A stretch of DNA of 64,000 bases, taken from positions 2,241,561-2,305,560 of the forward strand of contig OX639973.1 of NCBI GenBank assembly GCA_951828385.1. Direction: 5' to 3'. Positions within the stretch are counted from its first letter, which is position 1. Each line of letters begins with the position of its first letter. The DNA is from an uncultured Poribacteria bacterium. Its GTDB lineage: Bacteria > Poribacteria > WGA-4E > WGA-3G. A program made the translations under genes and the position numbers. Below, piece after piece: positions 15,509-38,384 of this stretch. The notes under the pieces are model-generated. The model saw nothing but the letters and a program-made list of their open reading frames with translations. It did no database searches and was not told the DNA's origin.

Positions 15509-16960
15509 ATGAAACTGTTAATGATACGATCTGGAAACCTGCATGCCTCAGCCAAAACCTCTTTTCACATTTTGTTATCTATATTTCTGGTTTGCATGGT
15601 CCTGCCACTCAGTTGGAGTTCGGAAGAGACAGGAACGGCGGTTGACGATGAATTGTTGGAGGGCATCGCGCTCTTGTCAGATGTCTTGGCTTATGTCCAA
15701 CAGGAGCATCTGGATACGCCGGATAGTAAAGAGATTATAGAGGGCGCAATCAGGGGGATGCTTCGCGAATTAGATCGATACAGTCAATTTATTCCGGATT
15801 ATCTTGAATTTCAGACCCAGAACCAAGGTAAGTACGCTGGACTCGGTATGGTCATCGGTATTCGTGAAGACATGTTGACTGTCATTACGCCTTTTAAAGG
15901 TTCACCTGCCGCGTTGGCTGGCATTCAGAATGGGGACATTATCACTCACATTGAAGATGAATCGACGATGCCACTTTCACTGAGCGATGCTGTAGATCAG
16001 CTGCGTGGTGAACCCGGTACCTATGTTTCTATCACAATCGTGCGCGAGAACGAAAGCCGTCCAATTGAACTTACCATTACCCGTGAGATCATCCGGATTC
16101 CGAGTGTCGAATACGATGTTATCGGCGATAACATTGGATACATCGAAATCAATCAATTCCTTCAGACGACAGCAAATGATGTTGATAATGCGCTTGCTGG
16201 GTTCAAGGCGAAAAATGTCCGTGGCGTTATCCTTGACCTCCGATCAAATCCGGGCGGTCTACTTTCCTCAGCTGTTGATATCGCAAGCGATTTCCTGACA
16301 CCCGGTCAACTCGTTGTTTATAGTAAGGGGCTTGAATCCCGTGAGGACTTCCGGGCAAAAGGCATAAAAAGAGAACATTTTCCACTGATTGTACTCGTCG
16401 ATGACGGGAGCGCAAGTGCCTCTGAGATCGTTGCAGGTGCCATAAAAGATCATGGGCGCGGGCTTGTCATGGGCGATAAGACCTTCGGCAAGGCATCCGT
16501 CCAACGGGTCTTTCAGTTGCGGAATTCAAAAGCTGCTGTGAAACTCACCGTTGCGCGTTACTATACACCCAACGGCGTTGATATTGATAAGGTGGGTATC
16601 ATTCCCGATGTTGAGACAGCAGGGTTTAGTCAGTCTGAATTGGGGATGCTGCGGTCGAAACTCCAAAATCACGAGAAGCTTAAAACCTTTGTAGAAAAAA
16701 ATGGTGACGATGTGTTAGAGAAACTCACTGCTGCTGAATATGCCGCCAGCGACAACTTACAAGCCGGAAAGCTGCTACGGAGTTACCAACGCTTAAGCGA
16801 TGCGCTTGCTGAAGAGCAGATTGTTCTCAGGGATCTCGGTATTAAATACGGACTCGCTCAGATTACGGAAACATCTCAGGACGAGTTGATGCATGACCCG
16901 CAGATCTTCGCCGCGATAAATCAGTTGAAGGTACTTGAACTCTTTGGAAATAAAAACTAA
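15509..16960 (+). CDS. ctpA: S41-family C-terminal processing peptidase (Ctp) with PDZ domain
   Basis: 483 aa. Signal/TM N-terminus, PDZ ([40 protein letters not shown]), catalytic region ([22 protein letters not shown]...[23 protein letters not shown]...[11 protein letters not shown]). Confidence 0.85.
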
Positions 16961-16985
16961 TGCCAAAATTAATGGAGATAAGCTG

Positions 16986-18446
16986 ATGCCTGAAGTCCAA
17001 ACACCACTATCAAACTATATTGATAGCACGTGGCAAAAATCAGCGACGGATGAACTGCTTGACGTTACGAATCCAGCAACCGGGGAAGTCCTTGCCCAAG
17101 TCCCGCTTTCACCCGCTAAAGAAGTGCATCAAGCTGCCACTGCTGCTGCCGAAGCACTCCACGAATGGCGACGCACCCCGCCCGTTCAACGCATTCAATA
17201 CCTCTTTGCCTTGAAAAATCTTTTGGAAGAAAACATTGACGACATCGCGAGAACGATTACGTTGGAGTGTGGTAAGACGCTTGACGAGGCAAAAGGCGAA
17301 ATGCGACGCGCTATCGAAAACGTCGAGGTAGCGTGCGGCATCCCGACGCTCATGCAAGGCACGAACTTAGAGGATATCGCCACCGGTATTGATGAATTTA
17401 TGATTCGTCAACCTGTCGGCGTATGTGCTGCAATCGCGCCTTTTAACTTTCCAGGGATGATTACCTTCTGGTTTTTACCTTATGCAATTGCTTGTGGCAA
17501 CACCTACATCGTCAAACCCTCCGAAAAAGTACCGCTCACGATGCAAAAGGTGTTCCAACTGCTTGAGCAGACAGGATTGCCTAAAGGTGTGGTCAACCTT
17601 GTTAATGGTGGACAGGAGACTGTAGATGCCATCTTAACGCATCCCGATATCCGCGGCATTAGTTTTGTCGGTGCGACTGCAACCGCAAAAGCCATCTATG
17701 CGAAAGCCGCCGCGAACGGGAAACGGGTACAGTGCCAAGGCGGTGCGAAAAATCCACTGATTGTGCTTCCAGATGCTGACCCACAGTTTACTGTGAACGC
17801 TACAGCGGAGAGCGCGTTCGGGTGTGCCGGTCAACGCTGTCTTGCGGCATCCCTTGCATTCACTGTTGGTGGTGCGCGACACTGGTTCACAGAAGCCATC
17901 GCGGATACCGCCACCGATCGGGTTGTCGGAAACGGATTGGCGGAAGGCATCGAAATGGGGCCCGTGATTACTGCCGAAAGCCAGAAGCGAATCGAGGGGT
18001 TAATTCAGGCCGGTGCTGATGAAGGCGCGCAGCTGCTTGTTGATGGTCGGTATCCAAGCATCTCCGGTGGTGAAAACGGTAATTTCATCCGTCCGACGAT
18101 CCTCAACGGTCTTAACCCGGAAGGCGAGATCGCCAAGACCGAAATCTTCGGACCCGTTTTAGGACTTATTCATGTTGAAACAATTGACGATGCAATTGAA
18201 CTCATCAATAGCGGCAGTTATGGCAATATGGCGTGTCTCTTTACAAGTAGCGGTGCGTCTGCCCGGAAGTTCCGCTATGAAGCAGAGATCGGAAACATCG
18301 GCATTAACATCGGTGTCGCTGCCCCGATGGCGTTCTTCCCCTTCAGTGGCTGGAAAGATAGTTTCTTCGGCGACCTCCACGGTCAGAGTTGGGATGCGGT
18401 AGATTTCTTCACACAGAAGAAAGTCGTTGTTGAACGCTGGACGTAA
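16986..18446 (+). CDS. Aldehyde dehydrogenase family protein, probably CoA-acylating methylmalonate-semialdehyde dehydrogenase-like
   Basis: ALDH catalytic Cys motif [15 protein letters not shown]-binding [12 protein letters not shown]. About 500 aa. Start moved to the ATG at 16986 (SD GGAGA) because the ORF-track start at 16935 overlaps ctpA. Confidence 0.8.
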
Positions 18447-18477
18447 TTTTCATAGCAGTATTTTTTCCAATTCGGTA

Positions 18478-18508
18478 GGCGCGCTTTGCAAGCGCGCCGA
18501 TATTTTTT
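18478..18508 (+). terminator. Rho-independent terminator after the aldehyde dehydrogenase gene
   Basis: GGCGCGC-tttgcaa-GCGCGCC perfect 7-bp GC stem followed by gaTATTTTTT. Sits between convergent genes. Confidence 0.5.
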
Positions 18509-18579
18509 GGAAATACTCTGTCTTTCCGACTTTGCTGGCGAGGCTTCATCTCGCCTTATAGTGCTTATCGCGTTCATGC

Positions 18580-20472
18580 TCACCACGGCTGCCTATATGA
18601 CGGCGAATTCGCGAAACGTTCCATCCTCAATTCCAAATCAATCTCTGTGTTCGGCGGCAGTTGGACGCAGATATACATGCCATTGACCGGAACCGTTTGC
18701 ACCTTTTCACTGGTGTTGACGCGTGCTGAAGTGAAGTTATGCTCACCCATCGCACCTGCCTGCACAACGACATCCCGCGATTCTGTGGTGTTAAGGTTGA
18801 CAAGTTGAAGCTCCGTTGTATCCGCTGTCAGCTTGGTAACCAACGCACCGACATCCGGTGGAAGTCCCGGTCGCTGCTGTTGCGCGTCAAAGTGCCGTAG
18901 CCGTGTCACGAACAAGCCGCCGTTGTAATGCGGTAGCGGAGCCCCACAGGTCAGTTGAACCAGCCCTTCACACGTAATTGGGTTGCGCCGCTGGAAATAG
19001 GCATCTCCATAATTCGCTGGAGCCTCGTCGTCGTTCGCCATAAAGTTGAGACGTGCTTCGACTTGCGATATGTTATGATTGAGGATTGATTCTGGATATT
19101 CAGGATAATCGCCGCGCATAAACGCCAGCCATGCCCCGTCGTGCCCACCGCTATCCTTTGTATGATGCCACGCGTTGATGTCAAATTTTGAACCCGTCTT
19201 TTTAGCGATGTTCTCTCCGCGTTTTTGATCCGCCTGATCCATTGACATTGCCCATAGATGGGCGACATCCGAAGCGTGCATCGGCATAAATTCAAACCAA
19301 CCGTCCACTTGCAGAGCCGTGCCGTCCACGTTTGTAATCGGATATTGCAACCAAGCACCGGGGACGTAGTTGACCTTGCCCGGATCACCATACTTCTGCG
19401 GGACGTAAAGTTGATCGTCCTTCCCAATCCCTTGTTGAATTAAAACGTCAATCTGTGAGCGCGGAAAATCGAGGAACGCCAAATCGCGCCAGAGCAATGC
19501 CGCATTCTGTCCAGCGATACTGACTGCTTGCCCGACGCTATGCCACCCATGCGGCCAACTCCAACCGTAGTAAGAACCATACCATTTGCCGTCTATATGT
19601 TCGCCAATTTTTCCAGTAAGTCCGACGTTGTCTGGAACGATACCACCATTTTCGGTTGTCCGTTCTATCCACGCATCGACGTATTCCCGGACCCATTCGC
19701 TGTATTTATCTTCACCCGTCAGGAGATAGGCATTGGTCGCAAGGGTTGTCGCAGCGAGGTTGACAACAGTATCCCCGACACCTTGCCGTTCACGGATACG
19801 CTGCCCCATACGGGTGCGCACCGCCTCATTTTCCCGCACCGCTTCATGACTCGTGCCGCCCGGTATATCGTAGAACGGCATATTGTAGCCGTCCCAGGGC
19901 CAATATGGGTGTCCAGTGAAAGCCCAAAACGCTGGTCCTTTGCTTCCGTTCATGGCGCACTTGATGATTTTGTGCTGACTGTCATAATTTGGGGCATCAG
20001 GGTCTTCGTTCATAAAGAACCCCGCAAACCGTTTTGCCCGTTCAATGTGCTTAGCATTTGACGGGTCCGCCATGCAGAGCATGTAAAAGAGGTAGTTCCC
20101 TTCGCCTTGATGAAACCAGTCATATCCGGGTTGATAATCTTTGACAACCATTGGGTAACCATGACCGCTACCGTATCGCGCCATATCGTTTGTGATGACA
20201 TCGAATTCGGTGTCTGCATCGACCAAGAATTGCGCGTCGCCACCGAGCATATAAAAAAGGGGCCAGTTATGAAAACTCTCGTAGGCATCGTCTAATCCGT
20301 CGATACTCTGAAAGTCTGGGGTTGTTGGCCAGAGCAGTGTACCATCAGCGCGCGTATATTTCTGTAGGACTTCTGGTCCTGCAGCGTTCATTTTATCAAT
20401 GAGTTCGCGCTCAAGGACTGCCCACGCCGGTGGTGTCTGGAGTTGTATTTGCGCTTCAATCGTTGGGAACAT
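18580..20472 (-). CDS. Large cytoplasmic W/Y/G-rich hypothetical protein. Possible (alpha/alpha)6 glycosidase-like fold, not supportable from sequence alone.
   Basis: The ORF-track frame is 18580-20592. The likely start is the ATG at 20470-20472 (MFPTIEAQIQ...) with SD GAGGGT. No signal peptide. Aromatic-rich segments (GKWYGSYYGWSWPHGWHS; HPYWPWDGYNMPFYDIPGG). Confidence 0.5.
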   Translation of the reverse strand: MFPTIEAQIQLQTPPAWAVLERELIDKMNAAGPEVLQKYTRADGTLLWPTTPDFQSIDGLDDAYESFHNWPLFYMLGGDAQFLVDADTEFDVITNDMARYGSGHGYPMVVKDYQPGYDWFHQGEGNYLFYMLCMADPSNAKHIERAKRFAGFFMNEDPDAPNYDSQHKIIKCAMNGSKGPAFWAFTGHPYWPWDGYNMPFYDIPGGTSHEAVRENEAVRTRMGQRIRERQGVGDTVVNLAATTLATNAYLLTGEDKYSEWVREYVDAWIERTTENGGIVPDNVGLTGKIGEHIDGKWYGSYYGWSWPHGWHSVGQAVSIAGQNAALLWRDLAFLDFPRSQIDVLIQQGIGKDDQLYVPQKYGDPGKVNYVPGAWLQYPITNVDGTALQVDGWFEFMPMHASDVAHLWAMSMDQADQKRGENIAKKTGSKFDINAWHHTKDSGGHDGAWLAFMRGDYPEYPESILNHNISQVEARLNFMANDDEAPANYGDAYFQRRNPITCEGLVQLTCGAPLPHYNGGLFVTRLRHFDAQQQRPGLPPDVGALVTKLTADTTELQLVNLNTTESRDVVVQAGAMGEHNFTSARVNTSEKVQTVPVNGMYICVQLPPNTEIDLELRMERFANSPSYRQPW

Positions 20473-20739
20473 GATTTTTACCCTCAATATTCGGATTCTG
20501 ATTGGTAGCAGTATATCACATTTGGGTTTTTGTATATTCGTAAAATCTATACTCTTACGTAAAGATAATCTAAAACCAAATCGTACTATCATAGTTCAGA
20601 ACCATTCAATTCTCCATTTTTCGCTCGAATCTTCACCACAAGGCCCGGTAGGTGCGGTTTTGGATGCACTTTACTGAGGCACATGGATAAAAACATATCC
20701 AAAAACCAGTATTCAGGAGATCCTTTTGTGGATTGTCGC

Positions 20740-20768
20740 TTGAATTCTCAGCGGGTTTCGTGTATAAT
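20740..20768 (+). promoter_or_regulatory. Candidate sigma70 promoter for the eutN-like gene (TTGAAT-17 bp-TATAAT)
   Basis: ttgaat(20740-20745) tctcagcgggtttcgtg tataat(20763-20768), about 60 nt upstream of ATG 20827. SD AAGAAAGG. Confidence 0.45.
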
Positions 20769-20826
20769 TTCAGAAACAGAAATAGTGTAAGTGAACTATT
20801 TTAACTCATAAGAAAGGTCAAACTAA

Positions 20827-21114
20827 ATGATCCTTGGAAAAGTTACTGGGACAATCGTCGCGACGCAGAAAGATGAGAAACTTATCGGAAGCAAGTTGAT
20901 GGTTGTCCAAGATGTGGATCTGAATGGAGAAGTCGACCGGAAATATACAGTCGCTGTGGATGCGGTTGGCGCAGGCATCGGCGAGATTGTCCTCGTCGCA
21001 ACGGGGAGTTCTGCGCGGCAAACCCAAGTCACATCGAACAAACCGGTTGATGCTGTGATCATGGCGATTGTTGATACCGTAGAAGTCGCCGGAAAAGTCC
21101 GGTATCATAAGTAG
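20827..21114 (+). CDS. eutN: Bacterial microcompartment vertex (pentamer) protein, EutN/CcmL/PduN family (BMC-P)
   Basis: 95 aa. Aligns by eye along its full length to E. coli EutN. Conserved blocks: AVDAVGAGIGEIVLVATGSSARQ vs AIDNIGAGTGEWVLLVSGSSARQ, and PVDAVIMAIVDTVEVAGKVRYHK vs PVDLCVIGIVDEVVSGGQVIFHK. Confidence 0.9.
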   Translation: MILGKVTGTIVATQKDEKLIGSKLMVVQDVDLNGEVDRKYTVAVDAVGAGIGEIVLVATGSSARQTQVTSNKPVDAVIMAIVDTVEVAGKVRYHK

Positions 21115-21148
21115 AAAATGGAACGCGCATTTATACGGGAACAAAGTA

Positions 21149-21718
21149 ATGGAACGTGAACGTGTCCGCGCTGAAGTGCTTCGCCAGCGTGACGGACTCG
21201 TACCGGAAGTCCGTGCCGTGTTCAGCCGACAGATTGTAGATTCGGTCATGCGTTGGATACAAAGCGGAAGTTTCGACGCTGTGATGCTCTATCTCAGCAT
21301 GCGGAGCGAGGTCGAAACGGATGCCCTCCTTGAAAGGCTGCTCCACGCAGGAAAACATATTTGTGCGCCTGTCGTAGATACGGATCAGCACCGACTCATA
21401 CCGCGGCGTATTCAGGAAGTAGAAACAGCATTGGTACGGCATCGCTACGGTATGTTGGAACCCAATACGGCATGCCCGATTTTTCCGATTTCGCAGCTGC
21501 AACTCATCGTCGTCCCTGGTATCGCCTTCGATTGTAAAGGGTATCGCCTCGGATACGGTAAAGGTTTCTACGATCGGTTCCTCGCGAGCTGCCCACATGC
21601 CATCCCGATCGGTCTAGCGTATCAGATACAAGTTGTAGAAAATACGTTCCCGCACGTATGGGATATACCGGTTAAACACATTTTTACAGAGACCGGTAGA
21701 ATAGATATTCATGAATAA
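21149..21718 (+). CDS. 5-formyltetrahydrofolate cyclo-ligase (MTHFS)
   Basis: 189 aa. Motifs VVPGIAFDCKGYRLGYGKGFYDRFL typical of 5-FTHF cyclo-ligase. Lies 34 nt downstream of the eutN-like gene. Confidence 0.85.
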   Translation: MERERVRAEVLRQRDGLVPEVRAVFSRQIVDSVMRWIQSGSFDAVMLYLSMRSEVETDALLERLLHAGKHICAPVVDTDQHRLIPRRIQEVETALVRHRYGMLEPNTACPIFPISQLQLIVVPGIAFDCKGYRLGYGKGFYDRFLASCPHAIPIGLAYQIQVVENTFPHVWDIPVKHIFTETGRIDIHE

Positions 21719-21761
21719 AAGTTGGGCGAGGCACAGGGACCACGTTCAACAAGAGAGTGGC

Positions 21762-22175
21762 TCACTTGGCATTAACAAAAGGTCGGAGTTTTTCCAACGT
21801 CTTCGCGCCGATACCTTTGACGTTCTGAAGCGCATCCACGCTGGTAAAGTTGCCGTGCTGTGTCCGATAATCCACAATCCGTTGTGCTGTCGTCTCGCCG
21901 ATATTAGGGAGGGTTTGGAGCTCCTCAACAGTAGCGGTATTGATATTAAGAAGTTCCGGTTTGTTCGGCATCCTATCCTCTGTTGTTCGATTTTGTGGAT
22001 GTGCGTCATTCGGTACAGCGATCAGATCCGGTTTTCCGAGAAACATCGCCGGTGCGAACCGCCGCACCCCCCAAAAGCCTGCCCCCGCTAAAATCAGTAT
22101 CACAAGGAAAGTGACTGCCTTCCAATAATGGCGTTCAACTGCGTTCTCCACGTTATTCATCTCTATTTTCCTCAA
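21762..22175 (-). CDS. comEA: ComEA-like helix-hairpin-helix DNA-binding protein (membrane anchored)
   Basis: 137 aa. N-terminal TM helix. C-terminal HhH tandem (LLNINTATVEELQTLPNIGETTAQRIVDYRTQHGNFTSVDALQNVKGIGAKTLEKL). Confidence 0.75.
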   Translation of the reverse strand: MRKIEMNNVENAVERHYWKAVTFLVILILAGAGFWGVRRFAPAMFLGKPDLIAVPNDAHPQNRTTEDRMPNKPELLNINTATVEELQTLPNIGETTAQRIVDYRTQHGNFTSVDALQNVKGIGAKTLEKLRPFVNAK

Positions 22176-22615
22176 GAAATAGCACCACTCTCATGTTCTT
22201 CCCAACTCGTCCGCAGTAAGTTTTCAATTCGACGTGGAAGTTGGTCCAATGAAATCGTTTTGCTCATAGGTCCATCCCCTTTTCAAGTAACACTTTTGGT
22301 CATTATTATACCATATTTTTTAGAATGTCGGCTACATCTTTTGCTGGGCTATTTAAACGCCCTAATCAAAATACTCGTCCTCATTAAACTTTGTCCACGA
22401 TTCAAATATAGGGAAGGGTCGCGGAAAATTGTCGTTGTTGATATTCAATCTGAACCTTATTTTTTCGCTATCAAAAAGGTTCTGGATCGAGATTGAGATG
22501 CCCGTGGTTTCGATGCAATTGTCGCACTCTGTGGGGAGTATTTGTTGGGAACGGGGTGCTTCAAAATAAATTCTGTATTCCGAACCCGCCTTCTCAATAC
22601 GATAATCGTCCGATA

Positions 22616-22936
22616 CTATCTCCCACTCGTTAAGCGCATACGGACCTTCAGCATACTGTGCCCATAGGCTGACCCCGTTAAAGAAATCAAGGATAACGCC
22701 TTTCTCTTGTCGGCATCTTTAGAAGGGTCGAATTGGCGGAATGAACGATCATCCAATTCCGCTTTTATCCGTTGTTCCTCTTCGCTACTGACGGGTTGCA
22801 ATGGATTGTCCGCACACGAAGAAAGGATCAAACAGGTGAACGTAAAAATAAAAAGCAGGAAGCGTGTTTTTGTGTTGGTTTTGAAGGCGTTGTGTTGACG
22901 CATGTGTATCCCCTCCATTATATTTTTATTGTCCAA
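22616..22936 (-). CDS. Small lipoprotein (lipobox LILSSC), probably 5' part of a frameshifted ~190-aa gene extending to about 22362
   Basis: Signal peptide plus Cys lipobox. The -1 frame downstream continues stop-free for 89 codons of protein-like sequence with no start codon (...NEWEIVSDDYRIEKAGSEYRIYFEAPRSQQILPTECDNCIE...). A G4 run (aacggggtc) is the candidate indel site. Confidence 0.5.
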   Translation of the reverse strand: MDNKNIMEGIHMRQHNAFKTNTKTRFLLFIFTFTCLILSSCADNPLQPVSSEEEQRIKAELDDRSFRQFDPSKDADKRKALSLISLTGSAYGHSMLKVRMRLTSGR

Positions 22937-23065
22937 ATTGTAGCGTTAAGTGAATAGGATTTTCCACAGAAAACGGACAGTGTGCGTTGGAACATTGGAT
23001 TATACTTGATACGGAAACCTGTCTCTGCTAAAATACGCAGTGAATTCACATTTGAAGAAAATGTT

Positions 23066-24100
23066 ATGCAGGAAATTGTGGTAGATTCAGCGAAGTTACA
23101 TGATTTCGCTCGGACACTCTGTGAAAAATCGGGACTGCGCTCGGAAGACGCGGAGCAGATGGCGGCACTTCAGGTGCAGACCGATTTGCGGGGTGTCCAT
23201 TCACACGGCACACGCGCCTTGCCGGGTTACCTCAACCTTGTCCTTGACGGTAAAATGAATCCAAAACCCGAACTCCACATTGCGACAGAGGGACCGAGTT
23301 TCGTTGTCGTTGACGGAGACAACGGCATGGGACATCTGGCAAGCACGCTCGCAATGGAGACAGCGATAGAGAAAGCGAAGACGACCGGTATCGCTGCGGC
23401 AGGGGTACGCAATGCTGGGCATTTTGGTGCGGCTGCATGCTACTCGATTATGGCGGCATCAAACCAGATGGTCGGATTTTCGACGACGAACACAGGTGGT
23501 GCCTCTATTGTAGCACCGGGTGGTGCTGAGGCTGTAGTTGCCAACAACGCGATGAGTTACGCGCTGCCTACAGGTAATGGGCATCCGATCGTATTGGATA
23601 TGGCGTGCGGCGTTTCCGCATGGGGCAAGATCGGCACCCTCCGAATGTATGGCAAACCGATCCCAGAAGGGTGGCTCATAGACGATACCGGACAACCGAC
23701 CAACGACCCGGATAAAGGACGGTTCTTAGCACCCGCAGCAGGACCACGCGGTTATGGTTTGGCACTCATCATGGGTGTCCTCGCTGGTCCCCTGAGCGGT
23801 GGCTTGATGGCGTGTAATAAATCGGGGGATCCGTCTGAACATTTCTTTTTCGCGCTGAACATTTCGAGTTTCACCGATTATGACGGCTACGTTGAAGAGA
23901 TGCAGCAAGGAATCGACAAGATTCACACCTCGAAAACGGCAGAAGGCGTGGAACAGGCATACCTTCCCGGTGAAATTGAGTGGAATAACTACGACAATTA
24001 CCTTGAAAACGGCATTCCGATCCATATAGACCATTTACGAGGTCTCGCTGGCATCGCTGAGAAATTAGATGTACCTATCTGTTGGGAATGGGAAGAGTAG
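23066..24100 (+). CDS. Ldh_2 family (malate/L-lactate/sulfolactate-type) NAD(P)H-dependent dehydrogenase
   Basis: N-terminus MQEIVVDSAKLHDFARTLCEKSGLRSEDAEQMAALQVQTDLRGVHSHGTRALPGYL and overall size/composition are typical of Ldh_2. Start moved to the ATG at 23066 (ORF-track 22982). Confidence 0.75.
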   Translation: MQEIVVDSAKLHDFARTLCEKSGLRSEDAEQMAALQVQTDLRGVHSHGTRALPGYLNLVLDGKMNPKPELHIATEGPSFVVVDGDNGMGHLASTLAMETAIEKAKTTGIAAAGVRNAGHFGAAACYSIMAASNQMVGFSTTNTGGASIVAPGGAEAVVANNAMSYALPTGNGHPIVLDMACGVSAWGKIGTLRMYGKPIPEGWLIDDTGQPTNDPDKGRFLAPAAGPRGYGLALIMGVLAGPLSGGLMACNKSGDPSEHFFFALNISSFTDYDGYVEEMQQGIDKIHTSKTAEGVEQAYLPGEIEWNNYDNYLENGIPIHIDHLRGLAGIAEKLDVPICWEWEE

Positions 24101-24120
24101 CAAAGAAATAAGGAGTCAAT

Positions 24121-25620
24121 ATGGCAGATACTAATAATGAACGTGTAGATGGTGGTGCGCTTCCCGATTGGGATGTTGCGGAACTGCCCGAACCACCGAA
24201 ATATCAATTTGGAAAAGCGTTCCGAAGCATCTTAGGTCCCGGCATCATTGCATTAGGGGGTTCAATCGGGAGCGGTGAGTGGTTGCTGGGCCCCGCAATT
24301 ACTGCGCAATACGGCGGGAGTCTCCTATGGATCGCGACAATCGCTATTTTGCTTCAGGTGATCTTGAATACAGAGGCGATCCGCTATACGCTTTACACAG
24401 GCGAACCGATGTTGAGCGGCTACATGCGCTGTAAACCGGGCGCGCCATTTTGGGCATCTTTCTATTCGGGCATCAACTTTTTTGGGATTTGGCCCGGTTG
24501 GGCGATGACCGCTGCGACGGCACTCGCTGCGGCGTGGATCGGTTATATGCCACAAGATGCTGATAGTGGAACGGTGCGTCTATTCGCATATCTTATTTTT
24601 TTCGCGTGTTTAGGGATCGTGCTGTTTGGCGGAAAGATTTACAACGTCCTTGAGAAGGTCCAACTTTTCATGGTCATCTGGATTATCAGTTACCTTGTTG
24701 TTATTGATCTATTTTGGGTACCGCCAAGTGTGTGGTGGACAACGATCAAAGGTTTTTTTAGCTTTGGATCACTCCCTACGCCAGGACCAGACGGAGAGGT
24801 TAATTGGCTATTGCTTGGTGCTTTTGCGGCTTACGCGGGAAGCGGCGGCTTAGGCAACGTTACCATCAGCAATTACGTGCGCGATAAAGGGTGGGGTATG
24901 AGCAGTCTCGTCGGTGCGATCCCATCGATGATCGGTGGACAGAATGTAACGCTTTCACACTTGGGCAAAGTCTTTCGTATTACCCCAGAAAACCTTGCCC
25001 GATTCAAGGAGTGGTGGAAATATGTTCGCTTTGAGCAGTACGGTATCTGGCTCATTGGGTGTTTTATCGGCATTGCGCTACCAGCAATGTTAACCTTGGC
25101 GTTCGTGCCTGCTGGACAGGAGATAGACCAGTGGTCAGCGGCAGGATTCCAAGCGGACGGACTCGCGAAGGAAGGCGGTAGAGTGTTGTGGTATCTCACA
25201 CTACTCTGTGGGTTCTGGGTGCTGTTCTCAACACAACTTGGTAGTGTGGACGGCGTTCCGCGAACTTATACCGATATTATATGGACCGGATTGAAGCGTG
25301 CGCGAAACCTCGGTGAACACAACGCAAAATGGATCTACTATCCCATCCTCGGTGTCTATATATTGTGGGGTGTTATCGCGATATATTTCACGCAGCCGTT
25401 CTTTATGATTCTGGTATCCGCAACGATTGGCGGGTATCTATTGGTGATTACCTCGCTACATACACTTTACGTCAACCGAAAATTCTTACCGAAAGAGATA
25501 CAACCTCCGATGTGGAAACAGGTTGGGTTGGTGTTGTGTGCAGGATACTATTCGATTTTTGGGACGATTACTGTCTGGCAACAAGTGATTGTGCCTTATG
25601 TTTTGCCGATTTTTGGATAG
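24121..25620 (+). CDS. Polytopic membrane transporter with weak Nramp/APC-superfamily-like features. Substrate unknown.
   Basis: 499 aa with about 11-12 hydrophobic segments. Gly-rich first TM region (GPGIIALGGSIGSGEWLLGP). Immediately downstream of the Ldh_2 gene. Confidence 0.5.
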   Translation: MADTNNERVDGGALPDWDVAELPEPPKYQFGKAFRSILGPGIIALGGSIGSGEWLLGPAITAQYGGSLLWIATIAILLQVILNTEAIRYTLYTGEPMLSGYMRCKPGAPFWASFYSGINFFGIWPGWAMTAATALAAAWIGYMPQDADSGTVRLFAYLIFFACLGIVLFGGKIYNVLEKVQLFMVIWIISYLVVIDLFWVPPSVWWTTIKGFFSFGSLPTPGPDGEVNWLLLGAFAAYAGSGGLGNVTISNYVRDKGWGMSSLVGAIPSMIGGQNVTLSHLGKVFRITPENLARFKEWWKYVRFEQYGIWLIGCFIGIALPAMLTLAFVPAGQEIDQWSAAGFQADGLAKEGGRVLWYLTLLCGFWVLFSTQLGSVDGVPRTYTDIIWTGLKRARNLGEHNAKWIYYPILGVYILWGVIAIYFTQPFFMILVSATIGGYLLVITSLHTLYVNRKFLPKEIQPPMWKQVGLVLCAGYYSIFGTITVWQQVIVPYVLPIFG

Positions 25621-25646
25621 CAAGAAATCGGGGTTACAAACCGCTT

Positions 25647-27179
25647 CTACAAAGAATGGTAAGCTGCAATAATTGCCTCCACAAGGCTCTCTATTGTGGC
25701 TTTCTTTGCAATCACATCAACCTGTATACCCTGTTTGATCGCTGTTTTCTGTGTCTCTGGACCGATGACTGCGATTTGCACATCCGCCAATAAAGTCTCA
25801 GGGGTATGCCTGGGGAACATCTCCAAGAAATTGTTGACTGTGGAAGAACTGGTGAATGTGAGGAGGTCAATCCTGCCGTTCAAGAGATCCGTTTCAATTT
25901 CATCTCGCCCTTTATCGCTATCGCTTGCCACTTTGAGGGTATCGTAGAGCGGGATATCATCAACGTGCGCGCCTCTTTCGCGCAAACCGTCGGGGAGATC
26001 GGACATCGCGATTTTCGCACGTGGTAGAAGGATTTTCCGCGCGCTTACTTCGTCTATTTCAGCAGCAATGGCACTCCCGCGGGAGCGCGCTGGGACAAAG
26101 TCAGGCTGAATACCGATAGCGTTAAGTGCCTCAACCGTTTTCGGACCCACTGCACAGATTTTGGTGCCACCGAACGCTCGTACATCGCTCCCATTTTCTC
26201 GCAAACGTTTATAGAAAATCTCAACGGCGTTAACACTCGTAAAGATAACCCAATCGTATTTGTCGGGAGAAGGCAGGTCTACACGTTCAATAGGTTGAAT
26301 CTTTATAGTCGGAAACTGGATGACCTCTGCGCCGTTTGCCTCTAAGAGGTCTGCGAATTCACTTGCTTGTGCGCGGGCGCGTGTGACAAGGATGCGTTTT
26401 CCGAAAAGTGGTTTGGTGTCAAACCATCGGAGTTGCTGGCGTAGCCGATTCACTTCTCCGACAACGATAACAGCGGGACTTTCGAGTTGGACTGCCGTTA
26501 CTTTTGACACAATATCCGCAAGGGTCCCTTGGACGACTTGCTGTTGCGGTGTCGTGCCAACACGTACTAAACTAACAGGCGTTGCGGGCTGCCTACCGTG
26601 TGTTATCAATCGTTCCACAATCTCGCGGAGATGCGCGACTCCCATATAAACGACAAGCGTATCTACTGCAGTGGCGAGGTGTTCCCAATTGATGTTTGAA
26701 TCTGATCGCAGTGCGGCGGAATGTCCTGTCACAAACGCTACCGATGATGCGTAATCTCGGTGCGTGACGGGGATGCCTGCATAAGCGGATGCGGCAATCG
26801 CAGAAGTGATACCGGGGACGACCTCAAACGGAATGCCTGCCTCGGTGAGTGCCATCGCCTCTTCGCCGCCACGCCCAAAGATATAGGGATCTCCACCCTT
26901 GAGGCGAACGACAACTTTGCCTGCCTTGGCATGCTTAACAAGTAACTGATTAAGTTCGGCTTGGCGTGTGGCGCGCACCCTTGGATCGGGTGCTTTGATT
27001 TTTTCGGTGTGCGAAGGACAGTGTTCCAATAACGCATCGTTCAGTAATAGGTCATAGATAACGACATCGGCGCGCTGAAGACACTCCACCCCTTTAAGTG
27101 TGATAAGTTTTCTATCACCGGGTCCAGCACCTACGATGTAGACGCTACCTGTGGGTAGTTTGTTTAGAGACGCGTTCAT
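25647..27179 (-). CDS. Uroporphyrinogen-III C-methyltransferase (CobA/SUMT) fused to uroporphyrinogen-III synthase (HemD)
   Basis: 510 aa. N-terminal SUMT motifs (VYIVGAGPGDRKLITLKGVECLQRADVVIYD; VVRLKGGDPYIFGRGGEE). C-terminal ~250 aa HemD-like. Confidence 0.85.
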   Translation of the reverse strand: MNASLNKLPTGSVYIVGAGPGDRKLITLKGVECLQRADVVIYDLLLNDALLEHCPSHTEKIKAPDPRVRATRQAELNQLLVKHAKAGKVVVRLKGGDPYIFGRGGEEAMALTEAGIPFEVVPGITSAIAASAYAGIPVTHRDYASSVAFVTGHSAALRSDSNINWEHLATAVDTLVVYMGVAHLREIVERLITHGRQPATPVSLVRVGTTPQQQVVQGTLADIVSKVTAVQLESPAVIVVGEVNRLRQQLRWFDTKPLFGKRILVTRARAQASEFADLLEANGAEVIQFPTIKIQPIERVDLPSPDKYDWVIFTSVNAVEIFYKRLRENGSDVRAFGGTKICAVGPKTVEALNAIGIQPDFVPARSRGSAIAAEIDEVSARKILLPRAKIAMSDLPDGLRERGAHVDDIPLYDTLKVASDSDKGRDEIETDLLNGRIDLLTFTSSSTVNNFLEMFPRHTPETLLADVQIAVIGPETQKTAIKQGIQVDVIAKKATIESLVEAIIAAYHSL

Positions 27180-28102
27180 TCCAAGACCCCTTGTGTCGCC
27201 AACAATCCAGTTGCCCCCCCCTCCCGGAGTTTTTCGGCAACAACTTCGCCTAAGTGTTGGGCAGCGTTTGGTTCCCCCTTTGCGCTCTTCACAATACGCA
27301 AGGCACCTTCTGGATGACAGACGACACCGATAAGGGAAAGTTCGCCATTAACATGTTTGGCGTACGCGCCAATCGGTACTTGACATCCACCGCCGAGGCT
27401 TTCCAACACGGTCCTTTCAGCGGTAACTTCTGCCACCGTTTCCTGATGGTTCAGAGGTTGAAGTAGGGTTTCAAGCGCAGTATCGCCTTCGCGTGCTTCA
27501 ATCGCGAGCGCGCCTTGTCCAACGGCTGGTACCATCCGTTCTACATCAAAGAATTGTGTAATAACTTCCGGCTTGCGGAGACGGTTGATGCCGGCTGCAG
27601 CAAGGATAATTCCATCAAGGCCGGTTTCATGAAGTTTGCGCAACCGCGTATCTATATTACCTCGGATATCAACGACTTGTAAATCTGGACGCATATAGAG
27701 GATTTGCGCTTTTCGACGCGGACTTGTGGTGCCGATTGTTGCGCCATTCAGCAAGTCCTCTAAGGGTAGTCCTGAGGCAGTGATGAGTACATCTCGCGGA
27801 TCCTCCCGTGTCGGAATCGCGGCGATGCAAAGCCCTTCGGGAAGTTCTATTGCGAGATCTTTCAAACTATGCACAGCGAGATCAATATCTCCTGCTAAGA
27901 GTGCGTTTTCTATCTCTTTGGTAAAGGCACCTTTGCCGAGTCCAACTAATGAGCGGTCCTGAATGGTATCCCCAGTAGTTTTGATGATCTTGAGGTTGAC
28001 TTCGAGATCAGAAAAGAGGCGTTCCAACTGATCTTTGACGAATTGTGCTTGCCAAAGTGCGAGTTGGCTACCACGGGTGCCGATTACAAGCGAGTTGCGC
28101 AT
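27176..28102 (-). CDS. hemC: Hydroxymethylbilane synthase / porphobilinogen deaminase (HemC)
   Basis: Conserved N-terminus LVIGTRGSQLALWQA and dipyrromethane cofactor Cys region (GGGCQVPIG). Start moved to the ATG at 28100-28102 (SD AAGGAA). 4-nt overlap with the downstream cobA/hemD gene. Confidence 0.9.
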   Translation of the reverse strand: MRNSLVIGTRGSQLALWQAQFVKDQLERLFSDLEVNLKIIKTTGDTIQDRSLVGLGKGAFTKEIENALLAGDIDLAVHSLKDLAIELPEGLCIAAIPTREDPRDVLITASGLPLEDLLNGATIGTTSPRRKAQILYMRPDLQVVDIRGNIDTRLRKLHETGLDGIILAAAGINRLRKPEVITQFFDVERMVPAVGQGALAIEAREGDTALETLLQPLNHQETVAEVTAERTVLESLGGGCQVPIGAYAKHVNGELSLIGVVCHPEGALRIVKSAKGEPNAAQHLGEVVAEKLREGGATGLLATQGVLE

Positions 28103-28224
28103 CAAAATTCCTTTTTTTAATATCGGGATTCTGCTCGTTTTTTGCCCTGCTTCCCCGTAACGGGTGGCGGATCTTATCAAAACGGAGCTTCCGTGAAGTT
28201 ATGTTGCTCTTGACGGGATTCACC

Positions 28225-29526
28225 TTATACATCCGAATGATCATCGTTAACATCCAAGGCGAACAATTCCTGCAAGGCTTGGATGTACTGCCCGTGGTCG
28301 GCATCTCCGTCGTTGACGGCACAGCGTAGATTTTGCATGGGATGGTGGAGCAGTTTTTTGACAATCGCTTGCGTCATGGAAGCAACAGCCGCTTCCTGCT
28401 GATCCGAAAGTGTTGCTTTATAGAAACACGCTTGCAATTCAGTGTCAGCGATCTCTCGAAACTGCTGATGGAGTGCCTTAATAGTAGGATTGACCTGAAA
28501 GATTTGCAATTGGGCGTAGAACCGCTTCGCTTCTTCGGTGACAATCTGCTCTGCTCGGTTCGCTTCTTGCTGTCGATCCTTGAGGTTGGAGGCGACAACG
28601 GCTTCAAGGTCGTCAATATTGTAAAGGAAGGCGTGGTCAATCTTACTCACATCGGGGTCTATATCGCGGGGTACAGCGATGTCAATGAGAAACATATACC
28701 GGTGCCTGCGTTTCCGCATGATATTAGCGAGGGGCTGTCGTTTGATAAGATAATCGGGTGCATCGGTAGAACTAATAACAATGTCGGCATCAATAAGGAA
28801 ATCAAGGTCGCTATCATAAGCGATGGGTGTACCGTTAAACTTCTCTGCGACTTTGACAGCACGTTCATAAGTGCGATTTGCAACAATCACGTTAGAGACA
28901 CCATTTGAAACGAGATGCTTTGCGGTCAGTTCACTCATTTCACCTGCTCCGAGAATTGCAACAGTCTTGCCTTCAAGTGTATTGAAAATCTTTTTGGCGA
29001 GTTCAACGGCGGCGTAACTAATAGAAACGGCACCCGTGGCGATAGTCGTCTCGGAGCGGATCCGTTTACCAACACTGAAAGCCTTGGTGAAAAGACGGTT
29101 GAGAATTGCCCCCCCCCCACCGGCTTCCCGCGAGGTATCGTAAGCAGTCTTGACCTGTCCTAATATTTGGGATTCACCGACCACCATAGAATCAAGGCTC
29201 GTTGTCACTCTGAAAAGGTGTTGGATTGTCTCCAAGTTATGATGGAGATACGTCCATTTTTTGAGGGACCCTACGCCGATTCGGTGGTAGTGTGAGAGGA
29301 ATTCAACCAACATTTTGGCGGCAGCGTCAGCAGTTCGCACCGAATTCACAACAGCGTAGACTTCTACCCGGTTACAGGTAGAGAGAATGACCGCCTCGTG
29401 AATCTGATAAGACTCACGAAGCTGCTGGAGCGATTCAGTAAGTTGTGCTTCGGAAAACGCCAATTTTTCCCTAAATTCAATCGGGGCAACATGATGGCTG
29501 GTTCCGATGGAGACGATCTGGTTCAT
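28225..29526 (-). CDS. hemA: Glutamyl-tRNA reductase (HemA)
   Basis: 433 aa. Catalytic Cys region (LSTCNRVEVY). NADPH-binding (AILGAGEMSELTAKHL). Confidence 0.9.
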   Translation of the reverse strand: MNQIVSIGTSHHVAPIEFREKLAFSEAQLTESLQQLRESYQIHEAVILSTCNRVEVYAVVNSVRTADAAAKMLVEFLSHYHRIGVGSLKKWTYLHHNLETIQHLFRVTTSLDSMVVGESQILGQVKTAYDTSREAGGGGAILNRLFTKAFSVGKRIRSETTIATGAVSISYAAVELAKKIFNTLEGKTVAILGAGEMSELTAKHLVSNGVSNVIVANRTYERAVKVAEKFNGTPIAYDSDLDFLIDADIVISSTDAPDYLIKRQPLANIMRKRRHRYMFLIDIAVPRDIDPDVSKIDHAFLYNIDDLEAVVASNLKDRQQEANRAEQIVTEEAKRFYAQLQIFQVNPTIKALHQQFREIADTELQACFYKATLSDQQEAAVASMTQAIVKKLLHHPMQNLRCAVNDGDADHGQYIQALQELFALDVNDDHSDV

Positions 29527-29655
29527 TCCTTATAACCAAAAGATCTAAAAGCTGAAATGTTGTTGATACGTTCCGTAAATTATATCACATATCAGCGATT
29601 GTGTCAAATTTGGAAGTCGCGAAGTCGCGATTCCAAACGGCTCTACCCAAGAAAA

Positions 29656-30498
29656 TTAGCGATACGTATGCATGCTATCTAAAAAGAGATCAACGCCAAC
29701 GTAAGTGCAAAGGACAGCGACGAACCCGAGGATTGCGGCGTAGGCTGCGCGTCGTCCGTGCCAGCCCCATAACTGACGGAGACCGATCTGGACGACATAG
29801 ATAAACCATGTCATGAGGGTGGAGATTACCTTCGCATCAAGCCACCTCCACGGGACATCTCGGATATACTGGGTCCAGAGACTTCCGACAATGACACCCA
29901 TTGTGAGCAGAATCACACCGAGAATCGTACAACGATACCCAAGTTCATCAGAAACACCGAGAGAAGGGAGGAGGTTGTCAAAAAGCGTGTCCGTTTTTTG
30001 GCGGATTTTCCGCTCGGCTATCAAATACATCAACCCAAATCCAAACGCAGCGATGAACGCCGCATAGCCGAGAAAGATGAGGGAGGTGTGTGCCAAAAGC
30101 CAATAGTTTTGCAACGGTTCCGGGAGTGCAGCAGTGTGTGTCGCGAAACTATATGAGATAAGTATAGCAATAAACGCAACCGGCATCACAAAACTACCGA
30201 GTGTGCGGAGTTGTGTCAGCCGCACGATGATGAGGTAGATCAGTGTGATTGCCCATGCAAAGAAAGCGGTGGAATCGGTCCAGTGCGTCATCGGAAAATG
30301 CCCTTGTGTGAGCCACCATAGCGTAATAAAGAGACTCAGAAAAGCAAAACCGATACTGGTTCCCCAAAAAGCGATTCGCTCAATCGTTGGACGGATGATA
30401 ACCGCTTCGCTCCGGTTACTGATAGCCAACGAGAGTGTCTGAAAAATGCTTGCCGCTAAGTATATTAAAAGAGTAACAAGAAACAGAAAATTTATCAT
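29656..30498 (-). CDS. Cytochrome c assembly protein CcsA/HemX-like (W-rich motif membrane protein)
   Basis: About 280 aa, 8 TM segments, WGW motif region (LRQLWGWHGRRAAY). Location immediately upstream of hemA is typical for hemX/ccsA-like genes. Start moved to the ATG at 30498. Confidence 0.6.
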   Translation of the reverse strand: MINFLFLVTLLIYLAASIFQTLSLAISNRSEAVIIRPTIERIAFWGTSIGFAFLSLFITLWWLTQGHFPMTHWTDSTAFFAWAITLIYLIIVRLTQLRTLGSFVMPVAFIAILISYSFATHTAALPEPLQNYWLLAHTSLIFLGYAAFIAAFGFGLMYLIAERKIRQKTDTLFDNLLPSLGVSDELGYRCTILGVILLTMGVIVGSLWTQYIRDVPWRWLDAKVISTLMTWFIYVVQIGLRQLWGWHGRRAAYAAILGFVAVLCTYVGVDLFLDSMHTYR

Positions 30499-30562
30499 AC
30501 GCTGTGCTTTTCGAGAGCCTAAGGACACATAGCAGTCAGATATGCCTCTCCGTTATGTGTGT

Positions 30563-31510: not shown

Positions 31511-31630
31511 GATTTTCTTCCTTTGCCTATCGAGACAGGAATGTCACTCATCTACGTGAGATGGTTAAGGCAGTACTCAACCGTTTTGAAAATCTTAAAA
31601 AAAGCAGACTATTTTCGCTTTCGGGCAATT

Positions 31631-32818: not shown

Positions 32819-32913
32819 TTTATAATAGTTCTCAGTCGTCAGTCGTCAGTTATCAGTTAAGAGGTGGTCTGATTAATCAAAAATATCTTTAACCGACAGT
32901 TGATAGTCATTCC

Positions 32914-33897: not shown

Positions 33898-34058
33898 AAT
33901 GTAATGGTTGTCAGTTGTCAGTCATCAGTTGTCAGTTCGGTTTTTCTGCGAAAAACCTTTCAGTTATCAGTTAAAGAGGTGTACTGTGGCAGTAACATAA
34001 TTTGTAATTGCCACAAGAAGTTAACTGAAAACTGACAACTGATGACTGACAACTATTA
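33898..34058. repeat. Imperfect ~30-bp inverted repeat built from AACTGAC-type heptads, flanking an ~80-bp centre (hemL-ispB intergenic)
   Basis: Left arm ggttgtcagttgtcagtcatcagttgtcagtt (33906-33937). Right arm aactgaaaactgacaactgatgactgacaac (34023-34053). Related heptad runs at 5116-5160 and 32825-32860. Confidence 0.7.
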
Positions 34059-35342: not shown

Positions 35343-35444
35343 AGCGTTCCCTCCAAATTTTTAAATTTTTAGCTACTCGGTTTCTGATGAAGTTATGTCG
35401 TTATCAGTTGATAGAGACAAACAACGAAGGGTCAATTGCGATTC

Positions 35445-37339: not shown

Positions 37340-37406
37340 AAGAGATTCCTTTTGCGCCTCGCGGTAAACTTTCAAGTTCCCGAAAGCGGTGCTTCAGAAA
37401 GCGGAA

Positions 37407-38306: not shown

Positions 38307-38384
38307 GAAGAGTTCCTTTCGCTATTTTTGCTAACTTTACAGAAAATGTCTACATATTTCGGGATTTCAGCATATAAAGCGGGA

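Follow-up and report, generated by a model that had tools for sequence, protein, structure and literature searches.

A stand-alone EutN/CcmL-type vertex-protein gene next to 5-formyltetrahydrofolate cyclo-ligase in Poribacteria: a probable member of the FRAG2 class of dispersed microcompartment genes

The stretch of Poribacterial DNA analysed here (64,000 nucleotides of contig OX639973.1; hereafter, the window) carries on its forward strand, at positions 20827–21114, a gene for a bacterial microcompartment vertex protein (BMC-P) of the EutN/CcmL family. The gene specifies 95 aa and is followed on the same strand, after a spacer of 34 nt (21115–21148), by the gene for 5-formyltetrahydrofolate cyclo-ligase (MTHFS; 21149–21718, 189 aa), with which a ComEA-like helix-hairpin-helix gene on the reverse strand (21762–22175) is convergent. 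A profile search reveals a full-length match of the BMC-P open reading frame (ORF) to PF03319 (EutN_CcmL; E = 1.9e-30, 105.6 bits, cut-off 25), with residues 1–83 matching profile positions 1–83 of 83 above the gathering score. Residues 1–95 align with 5V74, the BMC-P of the intact shell of Haliangium ochraceum, at approximately 60% identity (E = 3.9e-28), and in the long, conserved segment running from DAVGAG to MAIVD the two are mostly identical. The protein was modeled using AlphaFold (AF2; pLDDT 88.9), and comparison of the model by Foldseek with the shell-embedded pentamer subunits 6OWF and 5V74 gave TM values of 0.93–0.94 and an rmsd of 1.2 Å. Homologues of the protein carry the name Candidatus Poribacteria. 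A sequence-only reading of this DNA had placed the product in the BMC-P pentamer family, and the full-length profile match, the alignment with 5V74 and the model bear this out; by homology the protein would form pentamers at shell vertices.

The conserved block to which the gene belongs begins at a rearrangement breakpoint (20658–20739, forward strand), homology to other Poribacterial EutN loci starting at 20658. Comparison of the window with one of these loci, L009, by blastn aligned only positions 20658–22182 and 22354–30491. On the 5′ side of 20658 the genomic context differs from that of other Poribacterial EutN loci; the genes upstream of EutN in the window are absent from loci L001–L022 and are found in L100–L102. 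A motif scan located a sigma-70-type promoter-like site, TTGAAT-17 nt-TATAAT, at 20740–20768 on the forward strand, from which transcription is predicted to start near 20775. This site had been described as a near-consensus promoter, and the hexamers are indeed present, but the quality of the match is by itself at chance level (16 sites in the window matching at least 10/12 positions against 12.9 ± 3.3 in shuffles). Its support comes from the conservation of a TTGAAA...TATAAT block across Poribacterial lineages, which is kept in L001–L013 and L021 and also, amid unalignable flanks, in L016, L018 and L019 of the clade bearing a kinase and a regulator (see below). A sigma-54 promoter 5′ of EutN was considered and rejected: the candidate, TGGATTGTCGCTTGA, overlaps the −35 hexamer, its TGG is replaced by TAG in most relatives, and its −12 element reads GA where GC would be expected. 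The Shine-Dalgarno sequence AGAAAGG (20811–20817, forward strand), 9 nt before the BMC-P ATG, had likewise been noted in the sequence-only reading; its AAAGG core is invariant or nearly so in 19 aligned Poribacterial upstream regions. Neither an intrinsic terminator nor a structured element was found in the 34-nt spacer, the fold of which is no better than that of shuffles (z = 0.27), and read-through is likely. In the clade of the window, EutN and MTHFS probably constitute a bicistronic unit, co-transcription being deduced from the geometry of the genes and from the equal in-situ FPKM values of published orthologues rather than from mapped reads.

The second gene is an ordinary MTHFS that lies, as first described, on the same strand as BMC-P and 34 nt from it. 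Its product matches PF01812 (E = 1.2e-36) and, at equivalog level, TIGR02727 (157.3 bits; cut-off 84.9), residues 4–181 falling on profile positions 2–182 of 182; residues 3–182 also align with residues 3–176 of the 194-residue 1SOU (E = 3e-21). Only three residues precede the profile match and eight follow it, so neither terminus has an extension for an encapsulation peptide, nor is there room for such a peptide plus linker. From the TIGR02727 and 1SOU alignments, MTHFS is therefore unlikely to be cargo targeted by an amphipathic encapsulation peptide. The third gene (PF12836, E = 2.9e-24; TIGR00426) occurs after MTHFS in L001–L014, L016–L018, L020, L021 and L100–L102 and is absent in L019, L022 and L091–L099. 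This ComEA-like gene is regarded as a conserved neighbor in some lineages of the phylum, and no functional role in the locus is claimed for it.

No further shell gene accompanies BMC-P, as the sequence-only reading had also noted. Searching the 64-kb window by tblastn with PduA, EutM and CcmK2 yielded no BMC-H (best E 0.057), which leaves the 20.8 kb upstream and the 42.9 kb downstream of BMC-P without one. Neither PF00936 nor PF06130 was found among about 50 window ORFs scanned, and neither PF06130 nor PF01515 revealed a phosphotransacylase among them. The same absence of BMC-H characterizes the fetched flanks (6–10 kb on each side) of 34 other Poribacterial places as well as the 10 kb around 12 GTDB Poribacteria loci. 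The related claim that no signature enzyme lies within 20 kb needs qualification: a PF00171 (Aldedh) gene is located at 16935–18446, 2.4 kb upstream of EutN, but it encodes a CoA-acylating methylmalonate-semialdehyde dehydrogenase (MMSDH; TIGR01722 at 537.7 bits, cut-off 448.5), which is not of the microcompartment type. This gene was rejected as a signature enzyme, having no N-terminal extension beyond its likely start and no synteny with EutN outside the strain group of the window, L100–L102, where alone MMSDH is found in the fetched flank 5′ of EutN. A metabolosome core, that is, a PduP/EutE-type Aldedh or a phosphotransacylase adjoining a shell gene, is thus not found among the window ORFs scanned.

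Synteny was compared across 35 Poribacterial places, comprising the window and 34 others (e.g., L001–L022 and L091–L102). Every one of them has an uninterrupted BMC-P ORF of 95 aa. EutN and MTHFS are adjacent in 16 of these places, while in 13 the order on one strand is EutN, a PilS-like kinase, an NtrC-like regulator and MTHFS (with gaps of 10–12 nt in L016). A TnpB remnant separates EutN from MTHFS in three (L100–L102), and in another three (L015, L095 and L096) the fetched flank contains no MTHFS, EutN remaining intact in both groups. The eutN–MTHFS pairing is accordingly kept as a linkage in 32/35 places, and as direct adjacency in 16. The clade to which the window belongs has neither of the regulator genes, and this is why EutN and MTHFS are adjacent there. 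Upstream of EutN in L001–L010 and L016 is a divergent DAO-family gene (glycine/sarcosine-oxidase-like), a neighbor that the window does not have; MMSDH and DUF8034 occupy that position. Judged from EutN identity only, the four-gene arrangement would be ancestral, and the MTHFS beside EutN is most likely the leftover of an older four-gene operon and not a microcompartment partner. The pairing, which had been called unexplained, was reported in 2014 and is read here as the rest of a Poribacteria-wide EutN–kinase–regulator–MTHFS block. That this block has outlasted many rearrangements throughout the phylum might be due to selection for co-regulation and not to inertia.

Outside the phylum the surroundings are different. 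In 47 of 68 other-phylum loci the closest homologue (56–67% identity) is found just downstream of BMC-H, and where such loci contain BMC-P triplets the window protein resembles the first member (56–67% identity) more than the other two (31–48%). Locus L077, for instance, is of the SPU type, with the order TetR, RpiB, DeoC, BMC-H, BMC-P, Aldedh, BMC-T and then two further BMC-P genes. HMM searches of the 10 kb around the homologous BMC-P brought up no MTHFS (0/68 loci); regulator orthologues were likewise found in 0/68, so no EutN–kinase–regulator linkage was seen among them. The BMC-H proteins adjoining these homologues resemble one another closely even between phyla. The window BMC-P is a descendant or close kin of the first BMC-P of SPU/HO-like loci.

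The locus is already known from the literature, as "BMC group C" of Kamke et al. 2014 (PLoS One 9:e87353, PMC3909097) and within class FRAG2 of Sutter et al. 2021 (Nat Commun 12:3809, PMC8217296). In the single amplified genome SAG 3G, group C consists of POR3G_02618 (EutN), 02619 (MTHFS) and 02620 (ComEA), with EC 1.4.3.19 listed just before the EutN row, whereas EutN and MTHFS of SAG 4E are separated by a kinase and an NtrC-type regulator and followed by MraW (PMC3909097). SAG 3G possesses one PF00936 gene and three PF03319 genes; the shell genes were arranged into groups A–D, each in its own small locus, and the BMC-P locus of group B abuts a sigma-54 two-component system (PMC3909097). Sutter et al. 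describe Poribacterial shell genes as FRAG2, dispersed and without a main locus, 21 of 33 FRAG2 loci being Poribacterial, and catalogue a 95-aa Poribacterial BMC-P of the "green" clade as "FRAG2 (sat)", fadedGreen1; no enzymes, cargo or encapsulation peptides have been identified for FRAG types (PMC8217296). The defining feature of the class, that no locus has both BMC-H and BMC-P, holds for the window and for the flanks of the 34 other places. Stand-alone BMC-P genes are, as the sequence-only reading stated, a known phenomenon, all sequenced Poribacterial loci having been called "satellite-like" (Axen 2014). Its presumption of a main locus elsewhere in the genome finds no counterpart in this literature, which reports none in Poribacteria, and for this reason the locus is filed under FRAG2 rather than as a satellite. 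Published Poribacterial genomes carry one or two BMC-H genes (PMC3909097, PMC8217296), from which it is presumed that the genome of the window has BMC-H as well. An antibody against Poribacterial BMC-H gave a ring-shaped, membrane-associated signal, and there are no reports of polyhedral bodies in this phylum.

From these data we consider it probable that the gene encodes one of the vertex proteins of a FRAG2 microcompartment, MTHFS having been carried along from the four-gene block. The gene at 20827–21114 most likely represents the "green" clade within the BMC-P triplet of Poribacterial FRAG2 and is thereby the shell gene of Kamke's group C. The FRAG2 shell genes are scattered on the chromosome as one or two BMC-H genes, a tandem BMC-P pair and the single BMC-P seen here. 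The "green" BMC-P, which in other phyla directly follows BMC-H and precedes Aldedh in SPU/HO-like loci, heads in Poribacteria a lineage-specific block of EutN, PilS-like histidine kinase, NtrC-like sigma-54 response regulator and MTHFS, which the conserved sigma-70-like promoter would drive. Its pentamers would cap the vertices of a shell made from BMC-H encoded elsewhere, and MTHFS would have been kept through inherited gene order, not microcompartment biochemistry. The capping of a closed shell is proposed by homology only, since no polyhedral bodies have been reported and FRAG types have no known cargo that carries an encapsulation peptide.

Other explanations have to be weighed against this one. 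The sequence-only reading had allowed that BMC-P might be a non-functional remnant, and a decaying relic of a lost microcompartment locus would suit a window with no other shell gene and a neighborhood rich in rearrangements and mobile-element debris. Relative to the ten strains L001–L010, however, BMC-P shows 0 non-synonymous and 4–21 synonymous differences, that is, no amino acid change at dS up to 0.38, while the adjoining MTHFS and ComEA are only 82–95% identical in the same strains (disrupted copies in L010 apart). Relative to L011–L022, dN/dS is 0.04–0.09, which indicates strong purifying selection phylum-wide. The ORF is intact throughout, its promoter and Shine-Dalgarno sequence are conserved, BMC-H exists in published Poribacterial genomes and transcripts of the SAG 3G orthologue are present in sponge tissue (EutN 299.6 FPKM, MTHFS 306.7, BMC-H 1047; published in-situ data). 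Purifying selection and transcription together show that the gene is no remnant, and decay is scarcely credible. A functional pair of EutN and MTHFS, in which MTHFS would be cargo or partner, or the compartment would serve a folate- or one-carbon-linked, aldehyde-producing pathway, could draw upon a linkage that persists despite variable flanks, including on a pelagic marine metagenome contig, upon the near-equal transcription of the two genes and upon the oxidase-like neighbor that most genomes have divergently upstream (the DAO-family gene, or EC 1.4.3.19 in SAG 3G). Yet MTHFS is ordinary end to end, two regulator genes intervene in the common arrangement, the DAO neighbor is lost in the window, the link is broken or interrupted in six places in which EutN is intact, and the other-phylum loci have no MTHFS within 10 kb. 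Such a pair appears very unlikely.

It is also conceivable, though quite unlikely, that BMC-P acts outside a classical closed shell, in a membrane-associated assembly or as the partner or target of the PilS/NtrC-type two-component system. EutN opens a tight EutN–kinase–regulator unit (gaps of 3–12 nt) in most Poribacterial clades; the group B BMC-P locus likewise borders a sigma-54 two-component system; the ring of BMC-H immunolabel at the membrane does not resemble polyhedral bodies; BMC-P genes outnumber BMC-H genes; and no cargo is known for FRAG types. On the other hand, the window's clade has neither regulator and its BMC-P is nevertheless unchanged, the protein is close in sequence and model superposition to a pentamer of an intact shell, regulators beside shell genes are common in microcompartment loci (Axen 2014; PMC8217296), and H. 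ochraceum, which also has BMC-P triplets with few BMC-H, forms regular shells (Axen 2014). A broader possibility, which we regard as unlikely, is that the EutN–kinase–regulator–MTHFS cassette is a functional module and not inherited gene order, in which the "green" vertex protein is co-produced with a membrane sensor system controlling the scattered shell and enzyme genes, or in which BMC-P is employed at the membrane outside a closed shell. The compartment could then derive from an SPU-like ancestor that uses the deoxyribose of imported DNA, in keeping with the ComEA neighbor and the PilS/PilR-type regulators. If either the module or the membrane role were true, it would offer a first handle on the function of FRAG-type compartments.

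The EutN locus in the window is real, ordinary and already known, and by itself adds little, having been described in 2014 and its class catalogued in 2021. What is new is the finding of the closest other-phylum homologues directly after BMC-H in SPU/HO-like loci; the synteny of 35 places, with its four-gene block, adjacency through absence of the regulators, and lineages with a TnpB remnant or no MTHFS; and the demonstration that MTHFS has no encapsulation-peptide extension and that BMC-P is under strong purifying selection. FRAG-type microcompartments are found in the Poribacteria, symbionts of sponges that are abundant and uncultured. The comparison narrows the hypotheses: a conserved kinase/regulator pair accompanies BMC-P in most Poribacteria, MTHFS is a dispensable neighbor, and the chemistry inside the compartment is unlikely to be that of folate. 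Experiments could start from two concrete points, the conserved promoter and the NtrC-like regulator.

Several known systems invite comparison. In E. coli, MTHFS is co-transcribed with 6S RNA in the ssrS-ygfA operon, where, as in the window, it trails a lead gene without folate function; the lead gene of the window, by contrast, encodes a shell protein, and a 6S RNA 5′ of MTHFS was rejected, no Rfam family being detected at gathering thresholds in the whole window. The satellite loci of cyanobacterial ccmK3/ccmK4 are similar in that shell genes stand apart from the others with expression signals of their own, a separation proposed to allow separate regulation, but they are BMC-H genes supplementing a clear main carboxysome locus, whereas Poribacteria have no main locus and the gene considered here is a BMC-P. 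The first ("green") BMC-P of SPU/HO-type loci, including 5V74, is alike in sequence and fold (TM 0.93); its gene, however, lies between BMC-H and a microcompartment-type Aldedh, with BMC-T and two BMC-P genes within 2–5 kb, while the window locus has no shell gene or microcompartment enzyme nearby. Group C of Kamke et al., whose comparison covered two genomes where the present one covers 35 places, is the same locus, differing in the DAO-family gene upstream in place of MMSDH and DUF8034. The FRAG2 catalogue, the text and examined supplements of which are silent on MTHFS or two-component neighbors (PMC8217296), agrees with the window in phylum, in the 95-aa length, in the dispersal of the shell genes and in having no main locus, and nothing essential differs.

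The 95-residue product of the EutN gene (20827-21114, forward strand) matches the whole PF03319 EutN_CcmL profile (E = 1.9e-30) and aligns over residues 1-95 with 5V74, the BMC-P from the intact shell of Haliangium ochraceum (E = 3.9e-28, approximately 60% identity). Its AlphaFold model, built from 42 homologues, has a pLDDT of 88.9 and superimposes on the shell-embedded pentamer subunits 6OWF and 5V74 with TM scores of 0.93-0.94. The sequence-only reading had called it a microcompartment vertex protein; the observation is real and the assignment correct. All named homologues come from Candidatus Poribacteria, which are sponge symbionts. The pentamers would most likely close the vertices of a shell made of BMC-H encoded elsewhere, and other shell genes are presumably present in the window's own genome.

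No BMC-H was found in the 64-kb window by tblastn with PduA, EutM, and CcmK2 (best E 0.057), and Pfam scans of approximately 50 window ORFs revealed neither PF00936 nor PduL. The claim that the gene has neither shell partners nor an aldehyde dehydrogenase nearby holds for BMC-H but not for the dehydrogenase, as an Aldedh-family gene lies 2.4 kb upstream (16935-18446, forward strand). This encodes a CoA-acylating methylmalonate-semialdehyde dehydrogenase (MMSDH; TIGR01722, 537.7 bits vs. a cut-off of 448.5) with no extension past its probable start, and adjoins EutN only in the window's strain group. It is followed by a gene for a protein of 630-670 residues (18580-20592, reverse strand). The version of Pfam used contains no family for this protein; the precomputed annotation of L100-L102, loci of the same strain group, lists it as PF26099 (DUF8034). 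The region 16935-20592 is an upstream context peculiar to this group, other Poribacteria having a DAO-family gene there; L100-L102 additionally have a PIN-type toxin pair inserted between the MMSDH and DUF8034 genes.

The near-consensus promoter (TTGAAT-17-TATAAT, 20740-20768, forward strand) and good Shine-Dalgarno sequence (AGAAAGG, 9 nt 5′ of the ATG) noted previously are both present, but the promoter match is no better than chance would provide: the window contains 16 sites matching at 10 or more of 12 positions vs. 12.9 ± 3.3 in shuffled sequence. Homology to relatives starts at 20658, 82 nt 5′ of the -35 hexamer, and the promoter block and Shine-Dalgarno sequence are kept in the two-gene as well as the four-gene clades described below, where the sequence around them is unalignable. 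EutN is most likely transcribed moderately from its own conserved σ70-type promoter. The 34-nt spacer (21115-21148) between EutN and the 5-formyltetrahydrofolate cyclo-ligase gene (MTHFS) shows neither a terminator-like site nor a fold of unusual stability, and in the window's clade MTHFS would presumably be co-transcribed with EutN. In many relatives (L001, L005, L008, L011, L012, L018, and L019) the EutN leader is longer by a 45-50-nt segment containing a GC-rich inverted repeat (GGCG...CCTCGCC), at columns ~225-275 of the alignment of upstream regions (A2; e.g., L001 ~9940-9985). This element, missing from the window (~20805), L009, L004, and L013, may form a hairpin in the leader or may be a short inserted stretch.

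The alternative that EutN is a non-functional remnant did not survive comparison with related strains. Against ten strains with an identical protein the gene shows 4-21 synonymous and no non-synonymous differences (dS up to 0.38), and more distant Poribacteria give dN/dS values of 0.04-0.09. Identity over those ten strains is only 82-95% for MTHFS and the helix-hairpin-helix gene ComEA (21762-22175, reverse strand), disrupted L010 copies aside. In single-cell genome 3G, Jahn et al. 2016 recorded in situ transcription of EutN at 335, 261, and 302 FPKM (mean 299.6), MTHFS at 237, 280, and 404 (mean 306.7), and BMC-H at a mean of 1047, equivalent to 0.38, 0.39, and 1.34 times the housekeeping mean, respectively; their BMC-H antibody signal was ring-shaped and membrane-associated. 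Together, these selection data, the less conserved neighbors, and the published transcription exclude a decaying remnant. In L010 (10323-11320) MTHFS and ComEA are each split into two or three ORFs beside an intact, 100% identical EutN, reflecting either real pseudogenization or frameshift errors in a contig built from long reads at 19x.

MTHFS (21149-21718, forward strand; PF01812, 1.2e-36; TIGR02727 equivalog, 157 bits vs. a cut-off of 84.9) follows EutN on the same strand at the 34-nt spacing first described, and over residues 3-182 it can be aligned with positions 3-176 of 1SOU, a solved enzyme of 194 residues. Whether relatives share this pairing was examined at 35 Poribacterial places (the window, L001-L022, and L091-L102), which sort into four groups. 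The two genes are adjacent in 16, all with EutN 94-100% identical to that of the window. Thirteen others (EutN identity 68-85%), of which one derives from a metagenome of the marine pelagic zone, encode EutN, a PilS-like kinase (6TM_PilS, PAS, HisKA, and HATPase domains), an NtrC-like regulator (receiver, σ54 activator, and HTH_8), and MTHFS on one strand, with gaps of 10-12 nt in L016. In L100-L102, close relatives whose MTHFS protein is identical to that of the window, the spacer is 489 nt (L100 5512-6000) and holds, on the opposite strand, a C-terminal TnpB/Cas12f1-like TNB fragment (PF07282, 1.4e-20), a mobile-element remnant within the presumed operon. MTHFS is missing from the fetched flank of L015, which retains kinase and regulator, and of L095 and L096, where EutN stands alone. 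Upstream genes vary (DAO, VWA, GFO_IDH, transposases; DUF8034 in the window), and downstream lie ComEA, AP-endonuclease-family genes, or an rsmH-ftsL-ftsI-murE cluster.

The simplest reading is that the four-gene unit is probably ancestral in Poribacteria, with polarity drawn from EutN identity only; the window's clade would then have lost kinase and regulator. HMM searches found MTHFS and kinase/regulator orthologues in Poribacterial loci only (0/68 loci of other phyla). We regard it as quite improbable that a genuine role, regulatory or non-canonical, underlies the conserved link between BMC-P and PilS/NtrC-type regulators. A biochemical partnership of MTHFS with the compartment is unlikely, since the profile and 1SOU alignments leave no room for an encapsulation peptide and the gene has been lost or displaced in several lineages. 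In the deeper clades (L091, L092, and L099) and in single-cell genome 4E alike, the rsmH-ftsL-ftsI-murE division/cell-wall cluster comes immediately after MTHFS, and this neighborhood may be the original home of the gene.

Elsewhere in the window, the first 3.3 kb (1-3365) is without an ORF >129 aa, tandem repeats, or an Rfam match and may represent degraded gene remnants or non-coding DNA. No 6S RNA or other Rfam family reached gathering score in the 64 kb, spacer 21115-21148 included, and no tRNA genes were reported there. A heme/siroheme biosynthesis cluster (25647-36422, reverse strand), syntenic in most close relatives, comprises a cobA-hemD fusion, hemC, hemA, a cytochrome c assembly protein, a siroheme synthase-like gene, polyprenyl synthase, a class-III aminotransferase (hemL-like), and hemB. 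Three tandem paralogues of ~300-320 aa with a weak DUF3108-like match follow (36419-39356). Two proteins of ~1000 aa (46221-49277 and 57664-60603) join N-terminal ECF σ70 regions 2/4 to BNR/Sortilin-type β-propeller repeats, an unusual sigma-factor architecture. A WD40 protein, leucine-rich-repeat proteins, and dockerin-bearing proteins, one of the last with a GHL15 domain (44413-46107 and 51301-57268), are eukaryote-like repeat proteins of a kind known in Poribacteria (Kamke et al. 2014, PMC3909097). The window edge (62881-63987) encodes the C-terminal specificity domain of a Type ISP restriction-modification enzyme (PF18135, 8e-104), whose other parts would fall outside.

Both the EutN locus and the class to which it belongs have been published before. 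Kamke et al. 2014 described it as "BMC group C," with EutN (POR3G_02618), MTHFS (02619), and ComEA (02620) in that order in 3G, and EutN and MTHFS separated by a histidine kinase and an NtrC-type regulator in 4E. Their group A is a single BMC-H adjoining PduL and group B a tandem BMC-P pair adjoining a σ54 two-component system; 3G has one PF00936 and three PF03319 genes. Axen et al. 2014 termed all Poribacterial loci "satellite-like." In Sutter et al. 2021 (PMC8217296) the fragmented (FRAG) class comprises shell-gene sets that are dispersed among as many as six places and include a BMC-P triplet, and the tree labels a 95-aa Poribacterial BMC-P "FRAG2 (sat)," fadedGreen1; MTHFS is mentioned neither in that paper nor in the supplements examined. 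Our additions, namely likely SPU/HO-like descent, a probable ancestral four-gene block, promoter conservation, and MTHFS dispensability, are incremental.

Scanning one genome per GTDB species with the 42-homologue alignment recovered 12 Poribacterial loci and 68 from other phyla. A BMC-H gene immediately precedes the closest homologue (56-67% identity) in 47 of the 68. After the homologue there usually come a weakly Aldedh-like gene, a tandem-domain BMC-T, and two more BMC-P, which share only 31-48% identity with that of the window. The Gemmatimonadetes locus L077, with TetR, RpiB (PF02502), DeoC (PF01791), BMC-H, BMC-P, Aldedh, BMC-T, and two further BMC-P in that order, is of the sugar-phosphate-utilization (SPU) type as defined by Sutter et al. 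The other 21, mostly from Ignavibacteria, Melioribacteraceae, Bacteroidota, and Chlorobi, have BMC-P pairs or singles without BMC-H and resemble FRAG1. From these homologue positions and identities we surmise that the Poribacterial BMC-P is most likely the counterpart of the first ("green") BMC-P in an SPU/HO-like shell set and has become isolated; this kinship, together with PduL beside BMC-H, suggests that the Poribacterial compartment is an aldehyde-to-acyl-phosphate metabolosome.
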